DNA of 34,167 bases from an uncultured Desulfobacteraceae bacterium (GCA_964393665.1 CAYMVB010000077.1:1-34167), one strand, 5' to 3'. Shown: positions 2,566 through 25,536, numbered from the stretch's first letter. Numbers and translations: made by a program. The notes: generated from the letters alone by a model not told the origin.

Positions 2566-3564
2566 ATGTCTTCTTTACTAACAGATCTTTCGAAGCCGGA
2601 TAATCTCCCAGATGAAACAGCTCAGGTATCCGTCGTTCAGACACACATATCTTTTGTTTTTATAGCGGATGATTTTGTATATAAGGTAAAAAAGCCGGTA
2701 AACTTAGGTTTTTTAGATTTTTCTACATTAAAGAAAAGAAGGTACTATTGCCAACAGGAAATTATTTTAAATAGGCGGTTATCTGAAGGTGTTTACATAG
2801 ACGTATTGCCCATAAAACGTACGAGAAATACCTATATCATGGGAGAAGGGAAGGGCAGGGTTGTAGAATATGCGGTTAAGATGAGAAGGCTTCCCGATGA
2901 AATGCTTATGAAGTCTCTATTTATCAAAGGGAAACTTAAAGATGAGCATCTTAAAAAAGTTGCCATGGTACTCTCAGATTTTCATTCAACCGCTCGATAT
3001 TCAAATGAAATAAGTAACTATGGGAAGCCAGAGCTACTCAGGGTTAATACTGACGAAAATTTTGCACAAACAGAAAAATATATTGGAAGAACTATTAAAA
3101 AAAATGATTTTTCTTCTATTTTATCATGGACGGAAAATTATTATAAATCAAATACGGGGCTTTTTCTTGATAGAATTAAGCAAAAGAAAATACGTGACTG
3201 CCATGGTGATCTTCATATGGAGCATGTGTACCTCACAGAGGGCAGTCCTATAATTGATTGTATTGAGTTTAATGACAGATTCCGTTATACTGATATTATC
3301 TGTGATATCTCATTTCTTTTGATGGATCTCGAGTATCATGGTGCGTATGAATTCTCTAAAAAACTTTGGCAATTTTATAATGAGTCAGGGATTGAATCTG
3401 GGATAGAATCATTGGTCACATTTTATAAAGTTTACAGGGCTTATGTAAGGGGCAAGGTAAACAGCTTTCAGCTTGATGATGACCATATCGACGAAGAAAA
3501 AAAGGGGGAGGCTACAGAACTATCAAAAAAATATTTTGAACTAGCCAGATCATACATAGGTTAA
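2566..3564 (+). CDS. Aminoglycoside-phosphotransferase-like kinase (COG2187 type), stand-alone
   Basis: QTHISFVF, YKVKKPVNLGFLDFSTL, EYAVKMRR, DCHGDLH, DCIEFND, YRAYVRGKV motifs. Confidence 0.85.
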   Translation: MSSLLTDLSKPDNLPDETAQVSVVQTHISFVFIADDFVYKVKKPVNLGFLDFSTLKKRRYYCQQEIILNRRLSEGVYIDVLPIKRTRNTYIMGEGKGRVVEYAVKMRRLPDEMLMKSLFIKGKLKDEHLKKVAMVLSDFHSTARYSNEISNYGKPELLRVNTDENFAQTEKYIGRTIKKNDFSSILSWTENYYKSNTGLFLDRIKQKKIRDCHGDLHMEHVYLTEGSPIIDCIEFNDRFRYTDIICDISFLLMDLEYHGAYEFSKKLWQFYNESGIESGIESLVTFYKVYRAYVRGKVNSFQLDDDHIDEEKKGEATELSKKYFELARSYIG

Positions 3565-3646
3565 AGGAATGATTTAAAAAAAATATCGAAACGTAGACAG
3601 TACGATTATTACCTGCGTATGTTTTATTCACTCGTGCTTATTTATT

Positions 3647-4267
3647 TTGGAAAATCAGACGATTATGAGGGAAAATTTTTTAGATTTTATGCAAAGGGAA
3701 TTAAATCCAGATACCTTGCTTATTGCCTGCGGTCTGCCTGCTTCTTATAAAACAGAAACTACTGAGGTGATAGCTGAGTTAAAGGGTTTTGAAATATTAA
3801 GAACAGACATGATCAGGATTAATGTGTTGAAAAATGAGGATATTTTTGACGAAAAGGTAGCCTCTAATATGGAAAAAAGAGAACGTGTTTATGACGAAAT
3901 GTTTAAAAGGGCCGATGAGCTGGCAGCTAAACGTCACGGGCTGATCTTGGATGCCACCTTTATTACACAGTCTCTCAGAAACAGGGCCGCAAGCATAGCG
4001 GCAAAGTATGGCAAGGACTTTGTCATTCAGGAAACTACATGCCCAAGGGAGGTATCCTTACGCAGAATATCAAAGAGAACGAAAGAAAACTATGAATCAA
4101 ATGCACTTACTGAGCAGGCTTATTTAAATAACAAAAATAGATTTGAAGCAGTTCATTTAGATGAGCTTAAAGGCCTTTATCCCACGTTACATAGTATGCA
4201 TGTGATTGTGGATACAACATCAGATTTATCAGTTGAGTGGATCGTAATTGCTAAAGAAATAAGATAG
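3647..4267 (+). CDS. AAA_33/P-loop kinase (COG0645 type) with variant Walker A; start may be ATG 3665
   Basis: CGLPASYKT P-loop, RTDMIR, ILDATF, RISKR lid, ESNA; follows its usual COG2187 partner. Confidence 0.8.
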   Translation: MENQTIMRENFLDFMQRELNPDTLLIACGLPASYKTETTEVIAELKGFEILRTDMIRINVLKNEDIFDEKVASNMEKRERVYDEMFKRADELAAKRHGLILDATFITQSLRNRAASIAAKYGKDFVIQETTCPREVSLRRISKRTKENYESNALTEQAYLNNKNRFEAVHLDELKGLYPTLHSMHVIVDTTSDLSVEWIVIAKEIR

Positions 4268-5910: not shown

Positions 5911-7233
5911 TTGGCCCATTCATTTTACATAAAAACCTTTGGCTGTCAGATGAATATGTACGATTCTGAGACCATGTGCAAGATTTTGCTCAATAAAGGT
6001 TATACGCAGGCAAGTAACCTAAATACTGCTGATATCATTCTTATTAATACATGTGCGGTCAGAGAAAAGGCTGAGGAAAAGGCGTTGAGTATTGTTGGCC
6101 GGCTGGCCGATTTAAAGAAAAAGAAGCCGGATATTATTACAGGTATACTTGGATGTGTGGCTCAGGAAAGGGGGTCAAATCTTTTTAAACGATTTCCTTT
6201 TCTTGACCTTATTTTAGGACCACGAAACATACATAGCATAGATACATTCATTTCTAAGGTAGAGGATGGCGGAGGCAGGGTTTTCTCTGCCGATCTGAGT
6301 GACAAGATGATGTCCTTTACCAAAAATAATGGCTATGTAAAGGGCAGGGCATCTAGCTTTTTAAAAATTATGGAGGGGTGTGATAATTTTTGCTCTTACT
6401 GCATTGTTCCTTTTGTAAGGGGAAGGGAGTTCAGCTTACCGGCCCGGGAGATTATTGCTGAGGCCGAAGATTTGATAAGCCAGGGTGTACAGGAACTTAC
6501 CCTCATAGGCCAAAATGTAAATTCATATAATGTTAAAAATAAAGCACGGCCAACATTTCCTGAGTTGCTTAAGAAACTCGATGAAATCAAAGGCCTGAAA
6601 AGACTGCGCTTTGTTACCTCTCACCCAAAGGATCTTTCCGATGACTTGATAGCATCTTTCGGTAGGCTCAGAAGCCTTTGCACGCATATTCATCTTCCTT
6701 TTCAATCCGGCTCAAATAAAATACTTAAACGTATGAACAGAGGCTATACAAGGGATAGCTATAGTGATTTGATAAGGGCTTTACGGGAGGTAAAACCCGA
6801 TATAGCGATTACGAGTGATGTTATCGTGGGCTTCCCTGGAGAAGATAGTCAGGATTTCGAGGACACGCTAAAACTGGTAGAAGATATACGATTTGACAAC
6901 CTTTTCTCTTTTAAATATTCACAAAGATCGGGAACCAGGGCAATACAGTTAAATAATAAAGTTGGAGATGAAGAAAAACAAAGGCGTTTATCAATACTTC
7001 AAGAAAGACAGAGGGAAATAACCCTGTCAAAAAACCAGGCACTTGAGGGTAAAATACTGGAAATTTTGGTAGAAGGGCCTGCTAAAAAAGGGTATAATTA
7101 CCTGGAGGGCAGAACATCAGGCAACAAGGTTGTTAATTTTCCTTCAGATATTAATGTAACAGGCCGATTAGTGAATGTAAAAATAAACAATGGCTTTCAA
7201 AATTCTCTCTTTGGTGAGTTAATCAAAAATTAA
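5911..7233 (+). CDS. miaB: tRNA-i6A37 methylthiotransferase MiaB (TTG start)
   Basis: TFGCQMN, NTCAVREKAE, LGCVAQ, radical SAM CDNFCSYC, TSHP, HLPFQSG, C-terminal TRAM domain. Confidence 0.93.
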   Translation: MAHSFYIKTFGCQMNMYDSETMCKILLNKGYTQASNLNTADIILINTCAVREKAEEKALSIVGRLADLKKKKPDIITGILGCVAQERGSNLFKRFPFLDLILGPRNIHSIDTFISKVEDGGGRVFSADLSDKMMSFTKNNGYVKGRASSFLKIMEGCDNFCSYCIVPFVRGREFSLPAREIIAEAEDLISQGVQELTLIGQNVNSYNVKNKARPTFPELLKKLDEIKGLKRLRFVTSHPKDLSDDLIASFGRLRSLCTHIHLPFQSGSNKILKRMNRGYTRDSYSDLIRALREVKPDIAITSDVIVGFPGEDSQDFEDTLKLVEDIRFDNLFSFKYSQRSGTRAIQLNNKVGDEEKQRRLSILQERQREITLSKNQALEGKILEILVEGPAKKGYNYLEGRTSGNKVVNFPSDINVTGRLVNVKINNGFQNSLFGELIKN

Positions 7234-7243
7234 TTAAAAAAGC

Positions 7244-8101
7244 ATGAAAAAAAATAACGAATACTCCAGGGAGCATATTTTAATCGTTGATGATGAGCCC
7301 GATATCCGTATGTCTTTAACCGATCTATTATCAGAAAGGGGTTTTACAACAGATATAGCTGAAAATGGAAAAGCCGCATTACATAAAATACGGAAAAATT
7401 TCTATACATTCCTTCTCACTGACATAACAATGCCAGAGCTCAATGGAATTGATTTGATAAAAACAGTTAAAAGGGAGAAATGTGAAATTAGCATAATAGC
7501 AATGACAGGCTATGACAAAAATTTTACCTATATGGATGTGGTGAATGCCGGAGCCAATGACTTCTTGATCAAACCCTTTAAGGTAGATGAAATTGAGGCG
7601 AAGATAAAAAGAATTATCATTGAGAGGGATATTAGGGAAAAATTAGCTAGATTATCAATAACAGATAGCCTCACAAGACTCTTTAACCAAAGACACTTTA
7701 ATTACAAACTCAAAGAAGAGGTCAAGAGGGCAAAACGCCAAAACCGGCCCTTATCGCTTGCACTTCTGGACCTGGATAATTTTAAGGAATATAATGATAA
7801 GCTTGGTCATCTTGAGGGAGACAACATGCTTTCAAGGGCTGGCAAGTTAATCCTTTCACATATAAGAGAAAATGTTGATGTTGCCTTCAGGTATGGGGGG
7901 GATGAGTTTGCCGTTATTTTAGTTGACGCGGACAGAAATACAGCAAACTATATACGAGATAGACTTGAAAAAGGCTTTGAAGATGGATGTGATGTAAAGG
8001 CAAGTATAGGCATTGCAACATACTCGAAGGAGATGGACGTAAAAGAATTTATAGCCCTTGCCGATACAAATTTATATAAGGCAAAGAAGGAGAAGAAATA
8101 A
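7244..8101 (+). CDS. Response regulator receiver-diguanylate cyclase (REC-GGDEF)
   Basis: ILIVDDE, LTDITMP (phosphoacceptor Asp), FLIKPF; TDSLTRLFN, DLDNFK.YND, GHLEGD, RYGGDEF, AD.NLYKAK. Confidence 0.92.
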   Translation: MKKNNEYSREHILIVDDEPDIRMSLTDLLSERGFTTDIAENGKAALHKIRKNFYTFLLTDITMPELNGIDLIKTVKREKCEISIIAMTGYDKNFTYMDVVNAGANDFLIKPFKVDEIEAKIKRIIIERDIREKLARLSITDSLTRLFNQRHFNYKLKEEVKRAKRQNRPLSLALLDLDNFKEYNDKLGHLEGDNMLSRAGKLILSHIRENVDVAFRYGGDEFAVILVDADRNTANYIRDRLEKGFEDGCDVKASIGIATYSKEMDVKEFIALADTNLYKAKKEKK

Positions 8102-8115
8102 ATGAGATACTAATT

Positions 8116-8143
8116 GTGTCTGATAATATATATTATGTAAACC
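8116..8143 (+). other. dif: dif site (XerC/XerD chromosome dimer resolution site)
   Basis: GTGTCTGATAA-TATATA-TTATGTAAACC has the 11-6-11 layout of dif (E. coli GGTGCGCATAA-TGTATA-TTATGTTAAAT). It is intergenic, and KOPS motifs and gene strand bias flip around it. Confidence 0.85.
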
Positions 8144-8186
8144 TTAAGAAAATATCTCATTTTATCTCTTTAAAATAAAAAATGGG

Positions 8187-8215
8187 TTGACTTTACTTGT
8201 TTTATATATGATTAT
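8187..8215 (+). promoter_or_regulatory. Possible sigma70 promoter for the bS22-like gene
   Basis: TTGACT-17 nt-GATTAT, about 40 nt upstream of ATG 8255. Confidence 0.4.
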
Positions 8216-8254
8216 GCCACGTCCCTGTTAAATTTTATGGAGGTTTCCAGTTAT

Positions 8255-8347
8255 ATGAGTAGCGTCGTAAAGAAAAGAAGAAAAAAAATAAAAAAACATA
8301 AGTATAGAAAACTTTTGAAATCAATGCGTCATAAAAATAAGACATAA
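8255..8347 (+). CDS. 30-aa basic protein, bS22/AURKAIP1/COX24 (DUF1713) small ribosomal protein family; absent from the ORF track
   Basis: Translates to MSSVVKKRRKKIKKHKYRKLLKSMRHKNKT*, matching the M.SV.KKRRK...K.K.RKLL pattern of bS22. GGAGG at 8239-8243; terminator directly downstream. Confidence 0.88.
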   Translation: MSSVVKKRRKKIKKHKYRKLLKSMRHKNKT

Positions 8348-8362
8348 GTCTATATAAAAAAT

Positions 8363-8387
8363 AAGGGAGGCTCTTAGAGTCTCCCTT
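8363..8387. terminator. Rho-independent terminator hairpin, probably bidirectional, between the bS22-like gene and hbd
   Basis: AAGGGAGGCTC-TTA-GAGTCTCCCTT stem with one G-T pair, A-tract on the left and GTTT on the right. Confidence 0.75.
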
Positions 8388-8431
8388 GTTTCTCAAAATA
8401 TAATTCTGTAAGTTTTTGAAATTTTCTCTTA

Positions 8432-8476
8432 ATGAACTCTCCCTGCAGCAGAGTTGCGAGGAATTCTTTCAATTAA
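8432..8476. repeat. Short imperfect GC-rich palindromic element (REP/PATE-like)
   Basis: ATGAACTCTCCCTGCAGC-AGA-GTTGCGAGGAATTCTTTCAATTAA forms an imperfect hairpin in an AT-rich spacer; single copy in the window. Confidence 0.4.
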
Positions 8477-8500
8477 AATAAATTGGAAGGATTGGAAATT

Positions 8501-9352
8501 TTATTCATACCATCCACTACCAGTCTTTTTTCCAAGCTTTCCTGCCCTAACCATTGTCTTTAAAAGATTTGGTGAAACCCACTTGCTTTCCTTGTTAAGT
8601 TCCTTATAAAAATACTCACTTACAAAATATGCTATATCAATGCCCGTTAAATCCATGAGCTCAAATGGGCCCATAGGGTAATTTAGACCATTCTTTACAG
8701 CCTTATCAACATCTTCTATAGATGCAATGCCTTCTTCAACAATTTTTATAGCCTCAATCATGTGGGGGATCATTATCCTGTTTACTATAAAGCCTGGAGA
8801 ATCCTTTTTGACCTCAACGGTTATCTTCCCCATTTTTTGAGCTAATTCGGTTGTTACTTTTATTGTTTCGTCACTTGTTGAATAACCCCTTATAATTTCA
8901 ACTAATTTCATTAGTGGAACAGGGTTGAAAAAATGCATTCCGCATATTTTTTCAGGCCTTTTCGTGCTCGCTGCTATTTCTGTTATCGACATTGACGAGG
9001 TGTTTGTTGAAAGGATAACATCAGGTTTACATAATTCATCAAGCTCCTTGAAAACGCTTTTTTTCAGGTCCAAATCCTCTATAACAGCCTCCACAACAAA
9101 ATCGACATCCTTAAGGTCGGCCATATCTGTCGTGCCTTTTATACGACCCAGGATCGTGTCTTTCTCTTTCTGCTCAAGTTTACCTTTCTCTACGCTTTTA
9201 GTTAAGAAGCCATCAATTTTTTTTAGACCACTATCCACAAACCTCATTTCAACATCTCTCATCACAACATCGCATCCAATTTGCGCGGCTAACTGAGCAA
9301 TACCATTACCCATTGTTCCTGCCCCAATAACACCAATTTTTTTTATTTCCAT
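8501..9352 (-). CDS. hbd: 3-hydroxybutyryl-CoA (3-hydroxyacyl-CoA) dehydrogenase
   Basis: GVIGAGTMGNGIA, VVEAVIE, STNTSS, GMHFFNP, PGFIVNR, YPMGPF, GKKTGSG. Start set at ATG 9352, which has AGGAGG upstream. Confidence 0.9.
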   Translation of the reverse strand: MEIKKIGVIGAGTMGNGIAQLAAQIGCDVVMRDVEMRFVDSGLKKIDGFLTKSVEKGKLEQKEKDTILGRIKGTTDMADLKDVDFVVEAVIEDLDLKKSVFKELDELCKPDVILSTNTSSMSITEIAASTKRPEKICGMHFFNPVPLMKLVEIIRGYSTSDETIKVTTELAQKMGKITVEVKKDSPGFIVNRIMIPHMIEAIKIVEEGIASIEDVDKAVKNGLNYPMGPFELMDLTGIDIAYFVSEYFYKELNKESKWVSPNLLKTMVRAGKLGKKTGSGWYE

Positions 9353-9482
9353 AATTCCTCCTTTCATAATTCAATAAATAGATAAAACATTTTATAGATA
9401 ATTAAAACGTAAACCAAAAACCAGGCTGCTTTTTTGCTAACATATGTATATATCGTTAACAATGCAAATAAATAAATCAAAC

Positions 9483-9513
9483 CAGGCCAGCTTATTTGAA
9501 ATAAGCTTGCTTG
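9483..9513 (-). terminator. Hairpin immediately after the SplB-like gene, probable terminator
   Basis: AGCTTATT-TGA-AATAAGCT core with flanking CAGGC/GCTTG pairing, next to the stop at 9516. Confidence 0.5.
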
Positions 9514-9515
9514 AT

Positions 9516-10610
9516 CTAATCTTGGGCCATCTTCCTTACCCTGTTATCAAGGTATTCAGAAAGATTGGCAGAATTTTCAGGCGACCACCCAAAGGATTGC
9601 TTCCATACGTCATCACTTTCCATACAAAGATACATGCCTAAATCATTGTGCCATTTGTTTAATCGTTCTGATAGCTTAGAATACATTTCGATTCTAATAG
9701 GTTTAAAATATCTCATTTTACCATCAAGTCCTGGCACAAACTCTCCATTAAATATGTTTGTATTGGGAAACCTTGACTTAATATCCCATTTAAGTTGAGG
9801 CATATACCTAAAAGAACCCATACTAATCCATATAATGGACTCAGGGTTTATGTATTTTTCAAGCAATCTGACTACGCCGTAATATTCATCCTCCCACCCA
9901 TCATATTGTATGAGCGGGTCGAAATGAAATGCAAGCAAAAAACCAGCCTCCTGGCATTTTTTCGCCGCTAATATTCTGCTCTTTAGGTTGGCAGTCATTA
10001 ATTCCTCTTTTTCTACTATTTTTTGTGTGTTTAATGACCATGCCATTACAATCCTTTTCCTATAATCACCTTTAATAATATTGCTTATACAGGTGGTCTT
10101 TGTTTTTAACTCCAAAATAGTATTCTGTCTTGAAGAGAAAAATGGAAGGAGAAAATCAGACCACCCTGTAATGTGGTCAAGGGCTAGGCTGTCTGTAAAC
10201 TCACCGGTTCCTATTCTAAAAATTTTCTCAGGTTTGCTATCGATATATTCACCTATAACGCCCAGTTGCTCTTTTATATTAGTGAAAATTCTCAATGATG
10301 GCTGATTAACATAAGATTGTAGGAAACAATAACTGCAGTCCATTGGGCAATTCACGCCGACATGTAAAATTTTGTAGCCGCAGCATATATACCGTTTTGT
10401 GCCCGGGCAAGGCTTCAAAAATTCACCATTAAAATGAGTAAGCCTGAGGGATTTCTTGTCCATGAAATCTTGGCAGTCTATTAAGGCAAGGTCATCGGGT
10501 TCAACCCTAGTAATTTTTACACCCGGAAGTCTTTGCGTTATCTTTTTTGTAAGAACGTCAGATTCTGCATTTCCTTCAGCTAAAATTCTCGTAATGTTAA
10601 ATCTTCTCAC
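9516..10610 (-). CDS. Spore photoproduct lyase (SplB)-like radical SAM protein
   Basis: CPMDCSYCFLQ (CxxxCxxC), DSLALDHIT, LELKTK, WSLN, RILAAKK..EAGF.LAFHFDP, DGWEDEY resemble SplB. GTG start at 10610 has GGGGAG upstream and overlaps the upstream stop (GTGA). Confidence 0.82.
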   Translation of the reverse strand: MRRFNITRILAEGNAESDVLTKKITQRLPGVKITRVEPDDLALIDCQDFMDKKSLRLTHFNGEFLKPCPGTKRYICCGYKILHVGVNCPMDCSYCFLQSYVNQPSLRIFTNIKEQLGVIGEYIDSKPEKIFRIGTGEFTDSLALDHITGWSDFLLPFFSSRQNTILELKTKTTCISNIIKGDYRKRIVMAWSLNTQKIVEKEELMTANLKSRILAAKKCQEAGFLLAFHFDPLIQYDGWEDEYYGVVRLLEKYINPESIIWISMGSFRYMPQLKWDIKSRFPNTNIFNGEFVPGLDGKMRYFKPIRIEMYSKLSERLNKWHNDLGMYLCMESDDVWKQSFGWSPENSANLSEYLDNRVRKMAQD

Positions 10611-11596
10611 GTATCTCCCCTGCCCTTCCAAAAATTAGGTACCTCTGATAACTCTGCTAATTTATGTAATTTGTTGATCTTGTCAGTAAGCTCCTCACCA
10701 CGTGAAAAATCTATTTCAAGCCGGTAATTGACACCTTCGAAGAAAGGCGGAGAGATTACGTTGACTCCCGATGGTAGAGAAAGTCGATCAAGGCCGTTTT
10801 TAAAGGCCATGTGTGCCTCTGAGAGCAATGGGAAACGTCTATTTTTTAATACCGCTGTTATTGCCTTTACTTTTTGTGGTTTATTCATATTGGTATCTGC
10901 TACTATTTCTTGTACATCGCTGCTGTTAATTATATCTGTTATTACTTGCCCTTCCCTTCTGGAAATTTCTTCTAAATATTGAAAGAGTTGTACCTGTTGA
11001 TTAATACTGAACTTCAAGGAATTGAAAAGGCTACTTATGCCTAAACGGCTTTCCCTATCAATATTTGCCATAAGGCCTGCAACCTTTAGTGATACTGCGT
11101 TTCTTGCAACCGAAACCTTAACTATTTCCTCTAACATATTTAAATTAAGATATAATAGCAGGCTATGCCTGTTCGCAGGTATCGTAAGTAGCGGCAAATA
11201 TTTTTCTATAATTTCTTCCTTCTTTAAAAAATTAACCAGCCTATCCAGTATCATAGCCTTTTCAATGCTATTGAATTCGCGATGCAGGAGGTTATCGTCC
11301 AGGTTAAACAACAGGGCATCGTGCTCGGTAAAACTATCTGGTAACACGTTGCATTCCGCACCCTTCCATCCAAGCTCATGTGCTGCCAGCAATCTTTTAT
11401 AGCCTGTTACTACAGAGTATGAGTTGTCCAGATTTTTTATAAGATACGGGGGGTTTATAATGCCATATTTTGAAATAGATTTTTTAAGTATCTCAAGGTC
11501 AAAGTCAAAGCTCATACAAAATGGGCCATCAGGCAGCAAATTGACCTCCGGGATGTTTATTCTTACATTATGAGCCTTTATTGGTCTTGTTTCCAT
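10607..11596 (-). CDS. ParB/Srx N-terminal-domain protein with extended helical C-terminus
   Basis: LKKSISKYGIINPP and YSVVTGYKRLLAA (GxxRxxA), DNLLHREFNSIEKA. ATG 11596 preferred (GAAGGT upstream); the ORF extends to 11611. Confidence 0.78.
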   Translation of the reverse strand: METRPIKAHNVRINIPEVNLLPDGPFCMSFDFDLEILKKSISKYGIINPPYLIKNLDNSYSVVTGYKRLLAAHELGWKGAECNVLPDSFTEHDALLFNLDDNLLHREFNSIEKAMILDRLVNFLKKEEIIEKYLPLLTIPANRHSLLLYLNLNMLEEIVKVSVARNAVSLKVAGLMANIDRESRLGISSLFNSLKFSINQQVQLFQYLEEISRREGQVITDIINSSDVQEIVADTNMNKPQKVKAITAVLKNRRFPLLSEAHMAFKNGLDRLSLPSGVNVISPPFFEGVNYRLEIDFSRGEELTDKINKLHKLAELSEVPNFWKGRGDT

Positions 11597-11620: not shown

Positions 11621-11649
11621 TATGAAAATGATAGGCTATGCTTTTCATA
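11621..11649. promoter_or_regulatory. 29-bp near-perfect palindrome, candidate operator upstream of the ParB-like/SplB-like pair
   Basis: TATGAAAA-TG-ATAG-G-CTAT-GC-TTTTCATA, about 25 nt upstream of the start codon. Confidence 0.5.
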
Positions 11650-11932
11650 CTACACGATATTTGTCAATATGATTTAAGCCCACTACAAAAAGTAAAATAA
11701 TTCAATAGGATAAAAAAACAGACAAGATATGCTCGTTACTGCTTTTTTTGTGAAAGGGCCCTGCTAACAGTTCGTGTATACCTGCGGATGGACATCGGGC
11801 AGTTAGATGGGAGAAACAATTACCTCACGTTCTATGATAGGTTAAAAAAAGTGTTTTAAAAGGGGCATTAAAACGTTATGGAAAAATTACAACGACATAC
11901 ACGCGCCTTTAAAAAAGCACCCAAAAAAGTTT

Positions 11933-13912
11933 TCATGCAGCTACCCTCATTTCATCGTGTTTTACGATACTTTTTTCATATATAAAGACAAAACAACCAA
12001 GGATTATTCCTATACCTATTTTTATTGGGTCATTCGTAAAACAAAGTAATGCTCCTGCAACCAGTATGATTCTCATGCCTGCACCGAGACTTTTTACTAA
12101 ATAGCCCATAGTTCCTGCTGCAATCATATAGACGCCCACTGTTGCAGTGGTAACGGAAAAGATAATGTTTGGCACTGATCCCAATAATAAAAGTGACGTG
12201 TTAAAAATGAACATAAAGGGCAGGATATATTTTACAATAGCAAGCCTTACAGATATCCATGCAGTTTCCAGCCAATCTGCCTCCGCTATGCCTGCGGCTA
12301 CAAACACCCCAGGGCAGACCGGTGGTGTAAGGACTGATAGGATCGCAAAGTAAAGCACAAACATATGGGTCGCAACAGGGTTAAACCCCATTTGTATAAG
12401 GGATGGCGCAACAACAGCCGCACTCAATAGATATGCCGCAGGAGTAGGAACCCCCATTCCCAGCATAAGTGCCACGATGGCCGCAAGACCTAAAGCAAGA
12501 AATGTGTTGCTGCCGCTAAGGCCAATTATAATTTCAGAGATATTCACTCCAATGCCTGTTAGGGTAATAAGGGAGACAATTATATTAGCACAGACCAAAA
12601 GTGGGACGATTTTTATAAGTGACCTGCCGACATTATCCATGCCTTTTATAAGGTTTAATGCCCTTTTTCTTATCTCAGATAAGCTAAAGGTCGAAAATAC
12701 ATGGAGTATTGAAAGAACTGCAATTGCCCAGAAAGCTGATGTTTCCGGTGTATATCCCTTCACCATCAATGCAATAAGAAGTATGACAGGTATTACTAAT
12801 GGTATAGAGCGGGATGGCCGTAATATTTCAGCCAGGCGCTTGATATAACCGTCTGGGACTCTTTCAAGATTGCGCCTGGCACTTTCAAAGTGTATGGCAA
12901 AAAAGACGGATGTAAAAAATAAATAGGCTGGGATCAACGCACATATTGCAACTTGAATGTATGATATTTCAAGAAGCTCTGCCATTAAAAAGGCTGCGGA
13001 ACCCATTATAGGAGGAGTTATCTGCCCACCCGCAGATGCTGTGGCTTCAACTCCTGCCGAGAATTCATTTCCATATTTTAATTTTTTCATGAGAGGGATT
13101 GTAAAATTTCCCGTTGTGGCAGTATTTGCTACGGCGGACCCTGAAAGCATTCCAAAGAATGCACTAACTACTACTGAAACCTTTGCGGCGCCCCCAAAAA
13201 ACTTTCCCGTAAAACGCAGCGCTAAATCCATAAATGTGTTACCAGCACCAGTGGAAAGTAAAAATCCTCCAAATATAATAAATATAGCAACAATAGTAGA
13301 AGATACCCCTGTTACAAATCCCCAAAGTCCCTGGTCACTTAAATACATAACCTGGATGATATGTTTCATGCTAAAGCCTCTGTGACCCCAGTAAGAAAAA
13401 TAATCACCTATTACTGGTATGTCCGGAATGTATTGGCCAAAGAGTGCATAAAAGAGAAAGAGCAGGGTTAACACGGGAAAGATTATTCCTATTGTTCTTC
13501 GCCCTGCCTCCAATGCAAGAATAAACGCTGCTGTTCCCAGAAATAACTGTAAATTTGTTGATTCAGCAGGATGCTCCATTATCCAGTCATAATTAAAAAG
13601 AATATAGCCACATGATACAATAGCCGTTATAATTAAAAGAATGTCTATACCAAGGAGCACAGAGGGCCACAGGCCTTTGCCCTTTTTTTTCATAAACCCC
13701 ATCAGGGAAAATGTAAGAATCAAGGCAAAACCTACATGTACTGCTCTTTGCTTTAAGTTCGGCAATGGACCGGCAAAGCCAGTGTAAATATGAAACATGA
13801 CAAACAGTATAGCTACTGCACTAAGGATAATTCTCCATGTTCCATTAAGATTGTGCTGGTCTGATTTTGTGCTATGTTCTGCTACTTCACTTTGGTTAGT
13901 TTCAAGGGACAT
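11933..13912 (-). CDS. TRAP transporter fused 4TM/12TM permease (TAXI type)
   Basis: Highly hydrophobic; GGAAKVSVV.S, SGSAVAN, EATASAGGQITPPIMGSAAFLMAE, LGMGVPTPAAY, HMFVLYF, TPPVC. Confidence 0.92.
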   Translation of the reverse strand: MSLETNQSEVAEHSTKSDQHNLNGTWRIILSAVAILFVMFHIYTGFAGPLPNLKQRAVHVGFALILTFSLMGFMKKKGKGLWPSVLLGIDILLIITAIVSCGYILFNYDWIMEHPAESTNLQLFLGTAAFILALEAGRRTIGIIFPVLTLLFLFYALFGQYIPDIPVIGDYFSYWGHRGFSMKHIIQVMYLSDQGLWGFVTGVSSTIVAIFIIFGGFLLSTGAGNTFMDLALRFTGKFFGGAAKVSVVVSAFFGMLSGSAVANTATTGNFTIPLMKKLKYGNEFSAGVEATASAGGQITPPIMGSAAFLMAELLEISYIQVAICALIPAYLFFTSVFFAIHFESARRNLERVPDGYIKRLAEILRPSRSIPLVIPVILLIALMVKGYTPETSAFWAIAVLSILHVFSTFSLSEIRKRALNLIKGMDNVGRSLIKIVPLLVCANIIVSLITLTGIGVNISEIIIGLSGSNTFLALGLAAIVALMLGMGVPTPAAYLLSAAVVAPSLIQMGFNPVATHMFVLYFAILSVLTPPVCPGVFVAAGIAEADWLETAWISVRLAIVKYILPFMFIFNTSLLLLGSVPNIIFSVTTATVGVYMIAAGTMGYLVKSLGAGMRIILVAGALLCFTNDPIKIGIGIILGCFVFIYEKSIVKHDEMRVAA

Positions 13913-13967
13913 GTTTTTAACTCAAAGTTCCTTCTAAGATAAATGGTAACGGTTTTTGATCTTTAAT

Positions 13968-14027
13968 GAAAAAACACAGTAAAGACTTAGCTAACAAATT
14001 TAAGGGGCAGCCCTTACTGTGTTTTTC
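13968..14027 (-). terminator. Intergenic stem-loop after the TAXI binding-protein gene (partial terminator or mRNA stabiliser)
   Basis: 13-bp perfect arms AAAAACACAGTAA / TTACTGTGTTTTT. Confidence 0.55.
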
Positions 14028-14035
14028 AGGTATTG

Positions 14036-15034
14036 TTATCTCGCCTCCGGAGGTATTGCTACTGCAGGTATATTTTTTGCTCCAAGTTCAGAATATGCCC
14101 TGAGCGCACCTTTATGAAGGGGGATAAGTGTCAGATCTGCAGGATCCTGAACGAGATCAAGCTCTTTGAATGCCGGCCATGCAGATATCTGGAATTCCTT
14201 GCCTTTTATGATTGCATGAACTAACTTATAGGCAAGGTCATCGTTTAGTCCCTTATCACACATCACTCCTATAGGCCTCCCCCACATTGTATATGCCGGC
14301 TGATTGGGCATAGCCTTTATCCCACCTTCCGGAACAGTAATAAATGAAATGTAGGGGATTTCAGCTAAAATTTTCTCAGTGTGCTCTTTTGTTAGCGGGA
14401 TAAGTCGCAACTTCGTAAGTGTCATTATATCTAACGTTGATGAGTCAATCTGGGTTCCTATCCCTGTTTTTACATAACCTACGATTCTGTTGTCTTTTAT
14501 TGCCTTAACAGCATCGGATACTGCACCGATATGATAATCAGGTTTTACTCCCAGAATATTAAATATCTGTTTTGTCGTAGCCTCTGAAGCGGAGCCTCTA
14601 ATTCCAGGATTGAATTTTTTACCGTTAAGGTCTTCAAGTTTTTTAACGCCACTATCTTCTCTGACCACAATAAAATCTATGCCCACTGCATAGAGCCACA
14701 GTAATCTTAAATCCGGTAAAGGATTATCCTTCCACCTTGACAAACCCTGCCATGCTTCATACATAATTTTCATAGAGCAAATGCCCATATCGATTTCCTT
14801 GGCTTTAACCCTCGTGAGGTTGTCCACGCTTGCTCCTGTCTCAACAACATTTACCTTTACATCTGGTGTATATTTATTTATCGCTTTTGCGGCGCCAACA
14901 ACATATGCGTAGTGACTTGACGCTGCTGAACTTGCCCCAAAAAATAAATATGCCTTTTTCGCCTCAGACGTCACTGGTAATGTTAGAATTAACAATGCGA
15001 TAAAGACAAAAAAGAATCCTCTATATTTTTTCAT
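14036..15034 (-). CDS. TAXI family TRAP solute-binding protein
   Basis: Signal peptide (..SEA|K), ETGASVDN, DLRLL, DLNGKK, GSASE, IPLHKGALRAY; AGGAGG upstream. Confidence 0.92.
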   Translation of the reverse strand: MKKYRGFFFVFIALLILTLPVTSEAKKAYLFFGASSAASSHYAYVVGAAKAINKYTPDVKVNVVETGASVDNLTRVKAKEIDMGICSMKIMYEAWQGLSRWKDNPLPDLRLLWLYAVGIDFIVVREDSGVKKLEDLNGKKFNPGIRGSASEATTKQIFNILGVKPDYHIGAVSDAVKAIKDNRIVGYVKTGIGTQIDSSTLDIMTLTKLRLIPLTKEHTEKILAEIPYISFITVPEGGIKAMPNQPAYTMWGRPIGVMCDKGLNDDLAYKLVHAIIKGKEFQISAWPAFKELDLVQDPADLTLIPLHKGALRAYSELGAKNIPAVAIPPEAR

Positions 15035-15109
15035 GTATCTTCCTCCTTAAAGTAACAAGGTTTTAAATCACAGTTCTGCAATACAAGCTATGATAGGTAA
15101 GTACGAAAT

Positions 15110-15469
15110 TTACCGTAATGATTCTTTTACCTCTATTTGCAGTTTATTTGGTTTCGTTTTTTTCCAGGTATTTACGTTAAATGTATAATTTTCCCCTGCA
15201 GGAACCAAATTTGGCTGGCCTTTTTTTCCTGATGCGGTAAATTGTGGCACTTGATCATCGGCCTGAACAGCCAAATAAAAGGGCTTATCTTTGCCGGATA
15301 TATTTTTTATAGTTACATATACATAATAATTTCCCTTTTCATCTGCTTTACACTCAACTTTCTCTATCTTAGCGCTATCCACACTTTTTTTCTTGATGCC
15401 AGTTGAAAAAGCACTACAGGATACCAGTAAAAAAATCAGTATCAAAGGAAACGCACGCAATCTTTTCAT
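15110..15469 (-). CDS. Hypothetical lipoprotein, probably a beta-sandwich
   Basis: MKRLR, hydrophobic core and LVSC lipobox; VTIKN.S and VPAGE..TF patterns; AAGGAG upstream. Confidence 0.7.
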   Translation of the reverse strand: MKRLRAFPLILIFLLVSCSAFSTGIKKKSVDSAKIEKVECKADEKGNYYVYVTIKNISGKDKPFYLAVQADDQVPQFTASGKKGQPNLVPAGENYTFNVNTWKKTKPNKLQIEVKESLR

Positions 15470-15525
15470 ATTTTTCTCCTTGATTTAAGTTAATTGAATT
15501 TAAATCGACCTATGTAATTATCGTA

Positions 15526-16737
15526 TTACCAGATTATTAATTGACGAGGAAATTTATTCAGGATTTCAAAGCCTTCCTCATTAACAAGCACCATATCACC
15601 AATAACTCCTGCTGCCTCATTTGGAATAAAAAGATTAGGGTGAAGCTCAAAAAGCATTCCGTTTTGAATTTTAATGGGCGATTTGTTTTGTTCTTGTTTC
15701 TCGATATCTATATTTTTTAACAAATACGGGTTTGGAAAGGCATCTGAGAGAATTGGATCATTATAGTCAAGACCCAGGCTATGACCTGTTTTTAGCCAAT
15801 ACCAATCAAGGTCTCTTACATCAGGATAATATTTTCTTAATACATTGTCAGATGCCCTCCAAACTTCATTAAGGTCTAATCCAGGCTTCATGCAGTTCAA
15901 TGCCGCTTCTTCCATCTCCAGAACAATAGTAAACACCCGTAATTGGTCTTTATTAGGGCCCCCAATAGTGCCTGTCCTTATCGTGTGCCCCCAATGCCCT
16001 TCGTACATAATAAAAAGTGCTATGAGCACTTGATCGCCCTTTTGCGGCACCCTGTTGCATTCCCTTCTTGCATATCGTGGCCTATCTGCAACTGGCCTGA
16101 TGCTCAAAAAGGTTGAGGCGTGTTCACAGCCCTCATATTTTGCAGTGTGTTCCAGGTCAGCCTGAAGCTGGTAAACCTTTTTACCCTTCCCTATCTCCCT
16201 CGTAAGAGTCTCAAGCATTGCGTCACAGATTTCAGCCGCACGCTGGTGAAAAATAATCTGAATGGTATCTTTAATAATTCTCTGTTCATCTATAATTTTG
16301 CTTGCTTCAATTAATTCTATACCCTCTGCATCCTCTCGCAACCTATCATAGACAGGTGCTGGTGTCTCATCGCGGCCGATATAACCGATTTTTTTATTTT
16401 TTGAAAAAAGAGAATGAACACCTGTTATTATTTCCTGGCCTAATTTTGCCTGTGGGGTAACTCGGATATCGTCAAACCATAGTGTTTCCTTGGCATACAG
16501 TTGAGCAGATCGCATGGTAACTAATAGTATAGGGTCTTTTTCCGGTACCACGATCAGTACAGACGGTAAATTTCTTCCATCCCACCCACAAAGATAGCGT
16601 ATGTATCCATGAGTACGGCTGCCATTACCCAGCATGCTTCCTGTAGAATATATAACAAGGCCTTGAAGATTACGGCTCTGCATTTTTTCAGCGGTATTCT
16701 TCAAGCGTTCCTTAAATATTGAATTTGGTATTTTCAA
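15526..16737 (-). CDS. M24/creatinase-fold protein with non-canonical metal ligands (TTG start)
   Basis: Creatinase N-domain (ERL....KM...L.GL, YIRYLCG), R.IK, pita-bread motifs GDQVLIAL...GHWGHTIRT, KPG, GHSLGLD, GMLFELHP, IGDMVLV..EG.E.L. Confidence 0.8.
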   Translation of the reverse strand: MKIPNSIFKERLKNTAEKMQSRNLQGLVIYSTGSMLGNGSRTHGYIRYLCGWDGRNLPSVLIVVPEKDPILLVTMRSAQLYAKETLWFDDIRVTPQAKLGQEIITGVHSLFSKNKKIGYIGRDETPAPVYDRLREDAEGIELIEASKIIDEQRIIKDTIQIIFHQRAAEICDAMLETLTREIGKGKKVYQLQADLEHTAKYEGCEHASTFLSIRPVADRPRYARRECNRVPQKGDQVLIALFIMYEGHWGHTIRTGTIGGPNKDQLRVFTIVLEMEEAALNCMKPGLDLNEVWRASDNVLRKYYPDVRDLDWYWLKTGHSLGLDYNDPILSDAFPNPYLLKNIDIEKQEQNKSPIKIQNGMLFELHPNLFIPNEAAGVIGDMVLVNEEGFEILNKFPRQLIIW

Positions 16738-16766
16738 AATAACATCCTTAGGTAAAGAACTAGCGG

Positions 16767-17141
16767 TTATTCTAAAAACGTTCGATCAGGGTTATCCGTG
16801 TCAAAGGCAGGGGCATATATAGAGAGGATAATGCAAGCAAATCTCAATGCATGGGGGGTTCCTTTTGGGACAAAAAAAACATCGCCTTTTTTGAGGATTT
16901 TCTTCTCATCTCCAATGACTACCTCGCCTTCGCCATCCAGCAATTGTATAATTTCATCGTGATCTTTATGAATATGTAATGGGATACCATGTACACTGTC
17001 CGCCATCTGTACCGCATTTAATGTACAGTGCTCACCATGGTGGAGAAATGTATAGTTAATATTGTGCTTTTCATCCCTCCCATCCTCTGCCTTGCGGGCC
17101 TTTTCTAAAACCTCTGAGGCTGACCAAAAATTATCTGCCAT
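16767..17141 (-). CDS. Cupin domain protein
   Basis: HIHKDHDEIIQLLDGEG and GDVFFVPKGTPH motifs; H, H, E, H ligands intact. Confidence 0.88.
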   Translation of the reverse strand: MADNFWSASEVLEKARKAEDGRDEKHNINYTFLHHGEHCTLNAVQMADSVHGIPLHIHKDHDEIIQLLDGEGEVVIGDEKKILKKGDVFFVPKGTPHALRFACIILSIYAPAFDTDNPDRTFLE

Positions 17142-17212
17142 ATCTAAAAATCATCTCCTTTCAATAACATATCGTAACTATTAAACGAGTATCTATTGCA
17201 CTAACCCCCAAT

Positions 17213-18538
17213 CTAATTAAGCATTAATTTAGGAAGCCATAAGGTTAATTGAGGGAATATATATAATAATATCAAAGTCGGTAATTCAATAAATAGATAA
17301 GGAACAACTCCTTTTATTATATCACCGTCTGTAACCTCCGGAGGGGCAACACCTTTTAGAAAAAATATATTATATGCAAATGGTGGCGTTATATATGACA
17401 TCTTTAAGACAACGCAAAAAAGCAACGCAAACCATACGGGCTCGGCACCTATTGTTTTAAGTATGGGAACAAATATAGGAACTATTACTAATAGTATGCC
17501 AATCCAATCCATAAACATACCTAAAACGAAAACCAGCATCAGCATAATCATGATTGAAACAAGCTTATTGCCTCCACTAATACCAAAGATAAATGCTTCT
17601 ATCACATCCGCGCCGCCTAAAGCCATAAACGATGTAGTAAAAAATCCGGCAAGCAACATGATCATAAATACCATGCCGCAGGTTTTTGCAAGGGTGAGAA
17701 GTGCCTTTTGCATGGTTTCAAAATTTAAATGGCCATAAAAGGCAGTCAGGATTACCGAGATAAAGGCTCCGACACCGGCTGCTTCAGTAGGGGAGGCAAT
17801 TCCTGCGAATATTGAACCGAGGACGCCCAGAATAAGGGCTACAGGAGGAAAAAGATCTCTAATTATTAAAAAAAGGATCGTGCCCTTTGCTACCTCTTTT
17901 CGAGTCTCAGGAGGTAATGGTGGGCCTAGCTTCGGATTGATTGCACATCTTATAGCGATATAGGTCAAATAGGATAACCCTAATATGAGGCCGGGTATTA
18001 CCGCTGCTATAAAAAGACGAGCAATTCCAATTCCTGAAGCAGGCCCGTACAAAATCAGCATTATGCTGGGCGGGATAATAACCCCTAAGCCACCTCCTCC
18101 TGCGATACATCCTGCAACCATGCTCTTATCATAATTGCGGGATAGCATTGCAGGCATGGCAACAAGGCCCATCATGACGACTGTTGTCCCTGCTATCCCG
18201 GTACAGGCATCGAAGATGATAATTGCTATCATAGTACCTAAAAGCAGTCCACCTTTTAAGCGGCCCATTAAAAGATGCATGGTGCTGTATAATCTTTCAG
18301 CTATTCCCGCCTGCTCTAACATGCATCCCATAAAGATAAAAAGTGTGATAGCCTCCATTTCGTAGCTTGTCATCATGGTCATTGTACGGGCGGGAAGCAT
18401 TGCAATGAGGTCCATACCCCACGCAATATATCCAAATATCAATGCTAAAATGCCTAAAACAAATGCAACATGAAAACCGGCTATTATGAGGCCTATAAGG
18501 CCTAAAAACATTATTACGGCAAGTTGTGTCTCTGTCAT
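17213..18538 (-). CDS. dctM: TRAP transporter large permease DctM
   Basis: LFIFMG..LEQAGIAERL, GGLGVIIPPS, LF.AA.IPG, GIASPTEAAGVGA, LGMFMDW, ITPPF. Confidence 0.92.
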   Translation of the reverse strand: MTETQLAVIMFLGLIGLIIAGFHVAFVLGILALIFGYIAWGMDLIAMLPARTMTMMTSYEMEAITLFIFMGCMLEQAGIAERLYSTMHLLMGRLKGGLLLGTMIAIIIFDACTGIAGTTVVMMGLVAMPAMLSRNYDKSMVAGCIAGGGGLGVIIPPSIMLILYGPASGIGIARLFIAAVIPGLILGLSYLTYIAIRCAINPKLGPPLPPETRKEVAKGTILFLIIRDLFPPVALILGVLGSIFAGIASPTEAAGVGAFISVILTAFYGHLNFETMQKALLTLAKTCGMVFMIMLLAGFFTTSFMALGGADVIEAFIFGISGGNKLVSIMIMLMLVFVLGMFMDWIGILLVIVPIFVPILKTIGAEPVWFALLFCVVLKMSYITPPFAYNIFFLKGVAPPEVTDGDIIKGVVPYLFIELPTLILLYIFPQLTLWLPKLMLN

Positions 18539-19038
18539 TATTCCTTCCCTTTTATGACCACTGATAGGCTGCGGATAAATTCTGCTATCCCCTGAAGACC
18601 TAACAGGCCAAAGGCTACCGGAATCATCGTTTTAATGGGATAAACAGGGGCTCCTACGGTTGTATGCCATGAGCATTCCTTTATTTCCCATGCGGTTTTA
18701 GCAAATGAAATGCCATAAAAAACCAAGAACCCGCATATAGTCAAGAGAAATAAGTAGGAAATAGAAGTAATTATTGCCTGCATCCTCGGAGGGTATAGCT
18801 TAAATAATGGGTCTACCCTGACATGTCCTTTTTCTACAAGTGTATAGGTAAATGCGAAAAGAAAAACCATGGAGTAGAACATCCAAGCCAGCTCAAAGGA
18901 CCAGTCATCTCCCCTGTGAAAAAAATATCGCTCTACAACTATGGCAACAGTAACGAGCATCTGAAAAACAACAAACCAGCTTGAAACGTTGCCTGATAAG
19001 CGACTAAGCGTGTCAATATATTTCAAAAAACGATTCAT
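18538..19038 (-). CDS. dctQ: TRAP transporter small permease DctQ
   Basis: Four TM segments, V.RY, W..EL, GHVRVD, PVYPIKT.IP; 1-nt overlap with dctM. Confidence 0.9.
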   Translation of the reverse strand: MNRFLKYIDTLSRLSGNVSSWFVVFQMLVTVAIVVERYFFHRGDDWSFELAWMFYSMVFLFAFTYTLVEKGHVRVDPLFKLYPPRMQAIITSISYLFLLTICGFLVFYGISFAKTAWEIKECSWHTTVGAPVYPIKTMIPVAFGLLGLQGIAEFIRSLSVVIKGKE

Positions 19039-19075
19039 TCCTCATACCTTTGTTTAAAGTAAACGTATCGCATGC

Positions 19076-19115
19076 CACTTCCCTTCTTTTCTTAGTTTAA
19101 AAAAGAAGGGAAGTG
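19076..19115 (-). terminator. Perfect 15-bp stem-loop between dctP and dctQ
   Basis: CACTTCCCTTCTTTT-10 nt-AAAAGAAGGGAAGTG, just after the dctP stop. Confidence 0.65.
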
Positions 19116-19121
19116 CATATT

Positions 19122-20189
19122 TTACCAAGGCTCTATGGCATATTCTTTATATTTGTCAAAAAAGACTTTTTGGTGATCAAGTATCTTTTTGGCCCAGGGA
19201 TCACCCGTGGCAATAATTCTATTTCTCGCTCTTTCTGTTGCTTTCTCAAATTCCGCCTGCATTTCCGGTGTTACCTTGATTACCTCCCATTTGTCCTGCC
19301 ATTTTTCGGCCATAACTTGATCCATATATCCACCATATTCAAAGGCATGCCACATGCTTGCATCTGCAGCATATTTAACTACCTTCTTAAGGTCATCCGG
19401 CAGTGCCTTCCATGAATCCATATTTATAAATATCTGGACGGTGGCCCCAACAGGCTGATGAATAGCTCCAACCAGCACGTATTTGGCGACATCCTCTATG
19501 CCTGATTTTGAATCTATGTAAAATGAGCTCATTTCGCAGGCATCCAATTCGCCTCTTGACATGGCCGGTGTCACATCGGTCATAGGTATAGAAACACACG
19601 TACATCCCAATTCTTCAAAGAAAACCTTATTTAAACCTGAGGTTCTAATCTTAAGCCCTTTAAAATCCTCAATTTTCCTAAGAGGCTTAATTGAATAAAC
19701 AGCCTCAGAGGCCGTGATGACAACTGGAAAACTTGTAAGATTGAATTTGCTTTGGAAATATTCATTATAGAGGTCTAAGCCTCCTCCCTCGTATAGGTAT
19801 CGTACTTGTGAAAAAATGCTCTCATTTGTCCATCCAGGCCTACTTCCAATGGAAAGCCCTGCGTACGGTAACGTGCCGGCAACATACATACCGCTATTAT
19901 GGGTCAAATCCAATCTTCCCGCTGATGTCTCAGTCATGGCCTCTATTGGCCCTACTATTTCTCCACAGGCAAACATCTTTGGGATTACGAGGCGGCCACC
20001 ACTCATTTTATTAAGTGCTTCAACAAAATATTCTGCCTCATCATGAAAAGCATCACCACGGTTCCACGCTGATTGTGCCCTCCATTTAATCACCTCATCC
20101 TTTGCTTGTGCTGGTCTTTCACAAACGATAATGAAAAAGGTAAAGGCAACTGCCACTAACATAAACAATGAAAACCATCTTTTTGTCAT
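19122..20189 (-). CDS. dctP: TRAP solute-binding protein DctP (TakP/FcbT1-like subfamily)
   Basis: Signal peptide (..AQA|K), IKWRAQSAW, MSGGRL, EDFKGLKIRTSG (conserved Arg), W.ALPDDLK. Start set at ATG 20189 with GGAGGA upstream. Confidence 0.9.
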   Translation of the reverse strand: MTKRWFSLFMLVAVAFTFFIIVCERPAQAKDEVIKWRAQSAWNRGDAFHDEAEYFVEALNKMSGGRLVIPKMFACGEIVGPIEAMTETSAGRLDLTHNSGMYVAGTLPYAGLSIGSRPGWTNESIFSQVRYLYEGGGLDLYNEYFQSKFNLTSFPVVITASEAVYSIKPLRKIEDFKGLKIRTSGLNKVFFEELGCTCVSIPMTDVTPAMSRGELDACEMSSFYIDSKSGIEDVAKYVLVGAIHQPVGATVQIFINMDSWKALPDDLKKVVKYAADASMWHAFEYGGYMDQVMAEKWQDKWEVIKVTPEMQAEFEKATERARNRIIATGDPWAKKILDHQKVFFDKYKEYAIEPW

Positions 20190-20293
20190 TTTTTCCTCCA
20201 TCTTTAAAAAATTATCACTCGATAGTTCTTTCCGATATACGTATTTTTTTAGAATGAATTCCTCCTTTCTCTTTAAGGTTAAACACATCCGTT

Positions 20294-20971: not shown

Positions 20972-20983
20972 TATTGTTTTCCT

Positions 20984-21031
20984 GCCTACAGTCTACAGTC
21001 TACAATAGTTCAACACTATTACATTTGTCAA
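20984..21031 (-). promoter_or_regulatory. Sigma70 promoter of gntR overlapped by tandem 7-bp repeats (candidate GntR operator)
   Basis: Minus strand TTGACA-18 nt-TATTGT, overlapped and followed by TGTAGAC TGTAGAC TGTAGGC; AATAGT-N5-ACTATT palindrome at 21004-21020. Confidence 0.65.
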
Positions 21032-21155
21032 GAAAAAATTTGCTTGATTTTTTTATTGTACAAAAAAAAGTAGAAAGAGATTAGACGGGTGTATAAAAAA
21101 AGTATGTTTCATGAAGGGAGAATAAGAAGGAATAGGGTCAAGGTGTGGCTGTAAT

Positions 21156-25504: not shown

Positions 25505-25536
25505 TTTATCTCAGAAATAAATATTTTTAAAACTAT

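Follow-up and report, generated by a model that had tools for sequence, protein, structure and literature searches.

Spore photoproduct lyase (SPL, SplB), a radical S-adenosylmethionine (SAM) enzyme of Bacillus and Clostridium types, is defined by the family TIGR04070 and by structures from Geobacillus thermodenitrificans (4FHC-4FHG and 4RH0), and the roles of its active site residues are taken here from the available part of Benjdia et al, 2012 (PMC3467042). ParB-fold proteins have been linked to base modification in phages: in the accessible portion of the report by O'Toole et al, 2026 (PMC13229309), phage-encoded homologues of ParB act as activators of thymine dioxygenases, mutation of the nucleoside triphosphate (NTP) residues is without effect, the N-domain of ParB is required, and glycosyltransferases adjoin the ParB-independent class. 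We analysed a stretch of 34,167 nucleotides from an uncultured Desulfobacteraceae bacterium (GCA_964393665.1, CAYMVB010000077.1:1-34167; hereafter the window), in which two overlapping genes on the minus strand encode a ParB-like protein that we call the partner or adaptor (11596–10607, 329 residues) and an SPL-fold radical SAM enzyme (10610–9516, 364 residues). With a glycosyltransferase of family 2 (GT2), we tentatively propose, at a little under an even chance, that these genes are inherited as one system making a sugar-bearing, oxygen-independent modification of a nucleic acid base, a reading drawn from gene co-occurrence, fold and residue patterns.

The first-pass annotation of the window had described the two genes as a coupled pair, and a survey of co-occurrence and synteny bore this out. 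Among the best 80 of 596 confirmed GTDB loci, the partner gene lies directly upstream of the enzyme gene and on the same strand in 74, and four of the other six loci are at contig ends. In addition, 301 genomes of the phylum were searched with family profiles, the best six to eight candidates per genome being scored; weak matches were removed for the enzyme (10 of 191, E > 1e-60), for the partner (48 of 227, E > 1e-25, mostly at the level of canonical ParB) and for GT2 (7 of 179, E > 1e-65, as generic GT2). Enzyme and partner were both found in 175 genomes and neither in 116, with six carrying the enzyme only and four the partner only; in five of these six, a partner that is short or divergent does stand beside the enzyme. 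Genomes in which the two genes lie apart show the same co-occurrence (e.g., loci L143, L149, L151-L155 and L162-L164), and in some lineages the genes are fused. Enzyme and partner are conserved and make up two-thirds of a three-gene system.

The third gene encodes a GT2 that the first-pass annotation missed. Neighbour clustering placed one GT2 family directly upstream, co-oriented, in 21 loci from several families, and in the 301 genomes enzyme and GT2 occur together in 168 and are jointly absent from 116, leaving 13 with the enzyme only and four with GT2 only. When 12 of these 13 enzyme-only genomes were searched again with all candidates scored, no GT2 was found. Of 77 metagenome loci outside the phylum sample, 13 carry GT2 close by or in fusion. 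In L216, GT2, the helical insert of the partner and the enzyme share one open reading frame (ORF), known from a single contig; a related locus has separate genes for them. No solved structure specific to this GT2 family was found; its net charge is mildly basic (positive in 9 of 10 proteins, counted without a control set). The earlier expectation that the enzyme acts on a different lesion or base agrees with the rebuilt SPL pocket described below, but the dedicated GT2 moves the reading from repair to modification. In the whole assembly of the source genome (G000), Pfam recognised a single GT2, a very low number for a Gram-negative organism, and its envelope loci may be unassembled or reduced.

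The enzyme scores 99.7 bits against Pfam SPL (cut-off 27) and lies below the cut-offs of TIGR04070 (111 versus 400 bits) and TIGR03886 (40 versus 437). Its predicted structure superposes on 4FHC with a Z score of 28.8 and a root-mean-square deviation (rmsd) of 3.0 over 311 residues, whereas the next fold reaches a Z score of 11.5. The SPL fold is accompanied by the radical SAM CxxxCxxC motif, here CxxxCxYC (C88, C92 and C95; 10326–10349; this and the following features of both genes are on the minus strand), and by the SAM contacts; the motif RIGTGEFTDSLALDHIT quoted in the first-pass annotation is likewise present. Conservation in the 370 family rows is 96–100% both for the residues that contact SAM and the cluster (D140, K171 and S192) and for those that contact phosphate (R268 and K298), the latter two reaching 99–100%. 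The base pocket is different. Of the three thymine readers of the Geobacillus enzyme, R193 is replaced by A190 (S, A or G in 100% of the family) and E268 by S263 (98%), and Tyr339 is kept as Y327. F96 occupies the position of the relay residue Tyr98, where tyrosine is found in 12% of the rows and I, F or V in most, and a six-residue deletion removes the tip of the flipping hairpin (Arg304/Tyr305). Cyanobacterial and acidobacterial SPL-family proteins retain Arg193, Glu268 and the donor cysteine. Y327 belongs to a YLCME motif (9618–9632). Its C329, M330 and E331 lie where canonical SPL ends or beyond, and do not vary even in the clade that lacks loop cysteines.

As the first-pass annotation had observed, the position of the hydrogen-donor cysteine is occupied by glutamate: E137, in a GTGE-xTDS motif (10188–10211) whose D140 corresponds to Geobacillus Asp143, aligns with Geobacillus Cys140 and Bacillus subtilis Cys141. 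The glutamate of a “GGE” motif is usual in radical SAM enzymes. SPL lacks this motif according to the available part of PMC3467042, and E137 closes a GTGE sequence; E137 is thus probably the ancestral GGE glutamate and not a special substitution. The conclusion that the donor is missing holds only in part, because another cysteine, C68, falls at the donor position of clostridial enzymes, the very relocation that the annotation had named as a route to its own refutation. Sequence alignment by MAFFT and by hhalign alike places C68 opposite clostridial Cys75 and Bacillus Ser77, and the residue at this position is 4.2 Å from the 3'-thymidine and is described as an alternative hydrogen donor in the accessible text of PMC3467042 (also PMC5368176). 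The donor residue alone therefore gives no case against repair of spore photoproduct.

C68 opens a three-cysteine loop (C68-PGTKRYI-C76-C77; 10380–10409), the CPGTKRYICC sequence already noted in the first-pass annotation, which precedes C88xxxC92xxC95 and includes a six-residue insert with two extra cysteines in the 3'-thymine loop. Three or four cysteines are present in this loop in 362 of the 370 family rows, and C76 interchanges with a cysteine at position 70: 299 rows have C76 only, 58 have C70 only, four have both and nine have neither. On a FastTree phylogeny of 306 rows, built with the loop columns left out, this swap occurs in 18 separate clades, many of them single tips, and takes 20 parsimony changes. 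The number of cysteines, and not their position, is conserved, which suggests metal or cluster ligands and an auxiliary metal or Fe-S site in the loop. In 38 close-relative loci (L030-L086; e.g., L046:5148-5405), a small co-oriented gene for a NifU/NfuA-like Fe-S carrier lies directly downstream of the enzyme; it is absent from the window and would fit an auxiliary cluster, or may be local synteny.

The partner had been annotated as a ParB-N-domain protein. This domain is there, but the protein is a full-length ParB paralogue with an altered helix-turn-helix (HTH), a helical insert and a C-terminal domain. It scores 21.8 bits against Pfam ParB_N, under the cut-off of 26.3, and 31.8 against TIGR00180 (cut-off 58.45), and its model retrieves ParB and Noc structures with Foldseek at E 3e-8. 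Aligned with the canonical ParB of the same genome, it shows the N-domain, HTH region and C-terminal domain in the same order, the last by sequence only. The N-terminal domain, of the cytidine triphosphate (CTP) fold, spans residues ~10–107 (11276–11569) and matches PadC with a Z score of 11.5 and an rmsd of 2.3 over 99 aligned residues. Compared with canonical ParB, the sequences that we take to be the CTP motifs (NPxQPR, GERR and ENxQR) are degenerate: NPLQPR is replaced by PDGPFCMS and GERR by GYKR, and the third motif reads DNLLHR, with N..R kept. The HTH recognition helix is also altered, and the partner carries ~45 additional residues within a helical insert (residues ~189–260; 10817–11032), followed by a ParB-type dimerisation domain (residues ~270–311; 10664–10789) that is helix-strand-strand-helix in the model. 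The genome has a canonical parA-parB with a parS-type 16-mer on contig C162, and this indicates that the partner is not the partition protein; four parS variants gave no further match in the genome, and in agreement with the first-pass annotation no parA was seen, by eye, among the 56 ORFs of at least 80 residues in the window.

The helical insert is the part of the partner that persists. Several families retain only the C-terminal ~170 residues (L114, L125, L129, L157-L159, L168 and L169), and the insert is present in every truncated partner and fused to the enzyme in other lineages. Eighteen longer proteins among 150 family representatives match the partner profile. One, P0229, is a full ParB-enzyme fusion known as a single sequence; the others (~16 of 150) join only the helical part to the enzyme, in two cases behind a PNP_UDP_1 nucleosidase. 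Residues 189–260 of the partner align with the N-termini of fused enzymes in hhalign with a probability of 99.0 (E 3.4e-18, 72 columns). The insert is likely a functional, enzyme-binding adaptor, and CTP clamping appears to be optional; the earlier view of the partner as a ParB-like clamp or NTPase is accordingly weakened, the NPxQPR and GERR motifs being degenerate and the N-domain and HTH absent in several families. Fold searches with the insert gave no clear match, although a weak or missing match shows nothing. An apparent ParB-SPL fusion in G104 was discarded because it arises from a stretch of N in the sequence. Homology between the insert and the linker of a Fusobacterium PNP-SPL protein gained no support (hhalign probability 0.2, no hidden Markov model match). 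In a Fusobacterium vincentii record (L134:352-2223), a different SPL-like subfamily carries a fused nucleosidase-like domain, and a short-chain dehydrogenase/reductase gene comes after it; an Atlas row from Fusobacteriota (score 0.83) is a lead only.

Our proposal of a glycosylated base starts from the observation that the three genes co-occur, form operons and sometimes fuse; as a functional precedent, the ParB-activated thymine dioxygenases of phages come nearest. The helical insert would bind and activate the enzyme, and the ParB scaffold, where present, would dimerise the enzyme or load it on DNA, with CTP turnover probably dispensable. Because the SAM and phosphate contacts are conserved, the 5'-deoxyadenosyl radical is predicted to abstract a hydrogen from a base held on the phosphate backbone. 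The three-cysteine loop would line the site of the second thymine of SPL and bind an auxiliary metal or Fe-S cluster, which may capture or oxidise the base radical to give a hydroxyl or thiol handle; GT2 would then attach a sugar to this handle, and the nucleosidase linked in some lineages would remove 5'-deoxyadenosine. The most likely target polymer is DNA, with a tRNA acceptor as the other possibility. Taken by itself, glyco-modification of DNA is possible but doubtful, and that of RNA distinctly unlikely. The more specific suggestion, to which we give the same doubtful standing as to DNA, is that host chromosomes encode an oxygen-independent pathway to a glycosylated, base-J-like base in their own DNA, built from an SPL-derived enzyme with an auxiliary cluster, a ParB-derived adaptor and GT2.

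Several observations weigh against this proposal. Related genomes are not independent, and the E-value thresholds of the survey were chosen after the scores were seen. The evidence that ties the loop to GT2 points both ways: the clade in which all three loop cysteines are gone (support 1.0; six genomes seen) lacks GT2 as well, but this joint loss happened once, and in family f76 the cysteines persist without GT2 (0 of 2 genomes, 99% complete). The loss of two of the three thymine readers means that thymine is not indicated as the substrate, and C68 equals the donor of clostridial enzymes. The argument for DNA is weakened by partners without ParB-N or HTH and by fused forms without the ParB scaffold. 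The single-copy, scattered and lineage-wide inheritance looks like that of housekeeping functions (tRNA, cofactor) and not of phage or defence DNA modification; 82 pattern matches in viral contigs gave zero confirmed members, annotated phages two weak matches, and plasmids 31 distant matches with none spanning 80% of the query. In the phages themselves, the enzymes that depend on ParB are associated with kinases and amino-acid transferases and not with glycosyltransferases, as far as the available part of PMC13229309 goes. Finally, the thirteenth enzyme-only genome is the source genome, in which neither profile nor tblastn searches found GT2. In a genome of the same genus, GT2 comes after an ispH-like gene; in the source assembly this ispH-like gene is truncated by the end of contig C162 and the rest is missing, and one contig of run X5, which contains 0.92 of the window's words, is collinear from the ispH-like gene into GT2 with the same gene orientation. 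From this indirect evidence, GT2 is probably present in the source organism and lost to an assembly gap.

The PNP_UDP_1 nucleosidase raises another explanation, the tailoring of a nucleoside, cofactor or lipid, in which the adenosyl radical adds to a small acceptor, the nucleosidase removes adenine, GT2 glycosylates the product and the partner is an accessory subunit. The logic is that of HpnH/HpnG/HpnI in hopanoid synthesis or of MqnE/MqnB. P0271 and P0274 (the cluster of the latter is named Elusimicrobia) are fusions of nucleosidase and enzyme; the nucleosidase lies directly upstream in L208-type loci and precedes GT2 in L216 and L226, and such a role would suit both a partner whose ParB-N and HTH are dispensable and the housekeeping-like distribution. 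However, the 28 neighbour clusters seen most often at the phylum loci include no nucleosidase, and where present it may merely remove inhibitory 5'-deoxyadenosine. In the enzyme the SPL architecture is retained in full, N-terminal domain and basic phosphate contacts included, and most members have a full ParB scaffold, so we consider tailoring of a small molecule unlikely. In four loci (L205:1396-6374, L208:1691-6970, L209 and L212), fused insert-enzyme genes are preceded by genes for a B12-binding radical SAM protein and a second SPL-like radical SAM protein, and also by either GT2 or DUF362 and the nucleosidase, an extended version of the pathway.

The SPL ancestry of the enzyme raises two explanations based on repair. 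In one, the enzyme is a clostridial-type spore photoproduct lyase with C68 as its hydrogen donor, as the alternative donor described in the available part of PMC3467042 would allow; the ParB-like partner would load it on DNA and GT2 would be a fellow traveller. The SPL fold is far ahead of the others in structural comparison, Y327, R268, K298, K171 and D140 are retained, and SOS-linked splB homologues occur in non-sporulating alpha- and betaproteobacteria (PMC3323433, in the portion available). We nevertheless find this improbable: the equivalents of R193 and E268 and the hairpin tip are lost although cyanobacterial and acidobacterial proteins keep the first two and the donor cysteine, the 3'-thymine loop has its insert with two more cysteines, a single donor leaves the conserved cysteine count unexplained, and GT2 has no role. 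In addition, the 92.6%-complete genome, apparently non-sporulating as first annotated, has no Spo0A_C or SASP match (a Bacillus subtilis control was positive in both searches), the runs that contain window DNA are aquatic or sediment metagenomes, and the upstream region has no motif in common with the lexA or recA promoters. Repair of some other DNA lesion, such as a cross-link or sugar adduct that GT2 tags or caps before or after the radical step, would account for the SPL ancestry, the ParB scaffold, the kept phosphate contacts and the rebuilt base pocket. It is a shade more doubtful still, with no repair gene among the conserved neighbours and no SOS-box signal. We know of no precedent for a GT2 in direct lesion reversal. 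A slight chance is left to none of these explanations being right.

The two genes of the pair overlap through GTGA at 10607–10610, as first annotated, with GGGGAG just before it; this arrangement is likely to reflect translational coupling. The palindrome and hairpin noted in the first-pass annotation both exist, but neither gained in significance. The upstream imperfect inverted repeat (11621–11649; 14-nucleotide arms, 86% complementary) contains TGAAAA-N13-TTTTCA, a pattern with three occurrences in the genome, where four other spacers gave one to five; in a relative of the same genus the right arm is not kept. Being at chance frequency and not conserved, and sharing no motif with the lexA or recA promoters, the repeat was rejected as a parS, an SOS box or a conserved operator. 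The downstream repeat (9476–9520; 22-nucleotide arms, 77% complementary) crosses the stop codon of the enzyme gene and is a possible terminator or processing hairpin, but the terminator scan did not call it, and promoter and terminator scans gave signal no better than shuffled sequence. TACAG is present in 25 of 81 upstream regions, against 0.46 expected per region; the lexA promoter (L285:607-642; G000:C335) has three TACAG repeats across its -35 and -10 elements, and none was seen upstream of recA. A contig of run X3 diverges from the window at 11696–11713, with a loose end that begins GTCAACTAC and resembles the ends of IS200/IS605-type elements, which would place a strain-level insertion ahead of the operon. 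Short, low-depth contigs within both genes come from three metatranscriptome runs belonging to a single study, and we make no claim of expression because DNA carry-over is possible.

Named relatives are Desulfobacterota-type metagenome-assembled genomes, and close relatives keep the order of the miaB-like, GGDEF and 3-hydroxyacyl-CoA dehydrogenase genes beside the pair (5911–9367), an order that is not phylum-wide. A further SPL-like subfamily (L196:3371-4558 and L284), with “RCAKFYK” upstream and “LGELCDP”, is present as a second copy in some genomes and has mobile-looking neighbours in L196. Elsewhere in the window, adjacent phosphotransferase-like (APH, a weak match) and AAA_33 kinase-like genes (2566–4267) are split here; such genes are usually fused. 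The region 11933–22810 holds two sets of TRAP-type transporter genes, a peptidase-like gene, a cupin, a GntR regulator and an aconitase-X-like pair, of which only DctM was confirmed, and reads by eye as an uncharacterised catabolic cluster. At 24509–26592, a radical SAM gene resembling the activase of PFL stands beside a gene for a 351-residue protein with only a weak methionine-synthase match.

The trio is a directly testable orphan pathway of three small soluble proteins. No account of the pair or the trio was found in the open full-text literature, subscription journals being mostly outside this scope. With 7,536 matches among 7,999 candidates scored (90% clustering; more distant SPL relatives included), thousands of “spore photoproduct lyase” or “DNA photolyase” labels in non-sporulating sediment bacteria would be wrong where the proteins belong to this family, and canonical SPL could be a specialised offshoot of a wider family. 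A product on DNA or tRNA would mean new radical chemistry for nucleic acids, the anaerobic equivalent of TET/JBP oxidation, and a cellular case of the ParB fold as an enzyme activator, previously shown for phage enzymes; a mark on DNA would be an unrecognised one in about 60% of the sampled phylum genomes and in several other lineages.

Compared with known systems, the trio resembles HpnH/HpnG/HpnI and MqnE/MqnB in combining, in some lineages, a radical SAM enzyme, a PNP_UDP_1 nucleosidase and a GT2, but its enzyme has the SPL fold and a ParB-derived partner, and the nucleosidase is uncommon beside the phylum loci. The CTPase clamps ParB/Spo0J and Noc share with the partner the order of N-domain, HTH region and C-terminal domain, whereas the partner has altered NPxQPR, GERR and recognition helix sequences, the ~45-residue insert and no adjoining parA or parS. 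With SplB, the enzyme has in common the whole fold, CxxxCxYC, the equivalents of D143, K174, S195, R273, K309 and Y339, and a cysteine at the clostridial donor position; it differs in having glutamate for C140, lacking R193 and E268, showing mostly I, F or V for Y98, and missing the hairpin tip, and it adds the extra CC insert of the three-cysteine loop, the invariant C-terminal CME extension, a helical adaptor that it needs or carries, and the link to GT2. The ParB-dependent phage 5mYOX systems, as presented in the available part of PMC13229309, likewise pair an enzyme of pyrimidine-acting fold with a ParB-fold protein whose N- and C-terminal domains flank a helical part, their NTP residues also seem dispensable, and sugar transferases occur in related pathways. 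Here, however, the enzyme is an SPL-fold radical SAM protein and no TET/JBP Fe(II)/2-oxoglutarate dioxygenase, the trio is chromosomal and lineage-wide and not of phage origin, and the N-domain needed in the phage system is lost from the partner in some lineages. The trio is a member of neither the SplB nor the ParB family but is kin to both the SPL fold and ParB-assisted base modification, and would represent categorically new chemistry if the reading as a base-J-like DNA mark holds.

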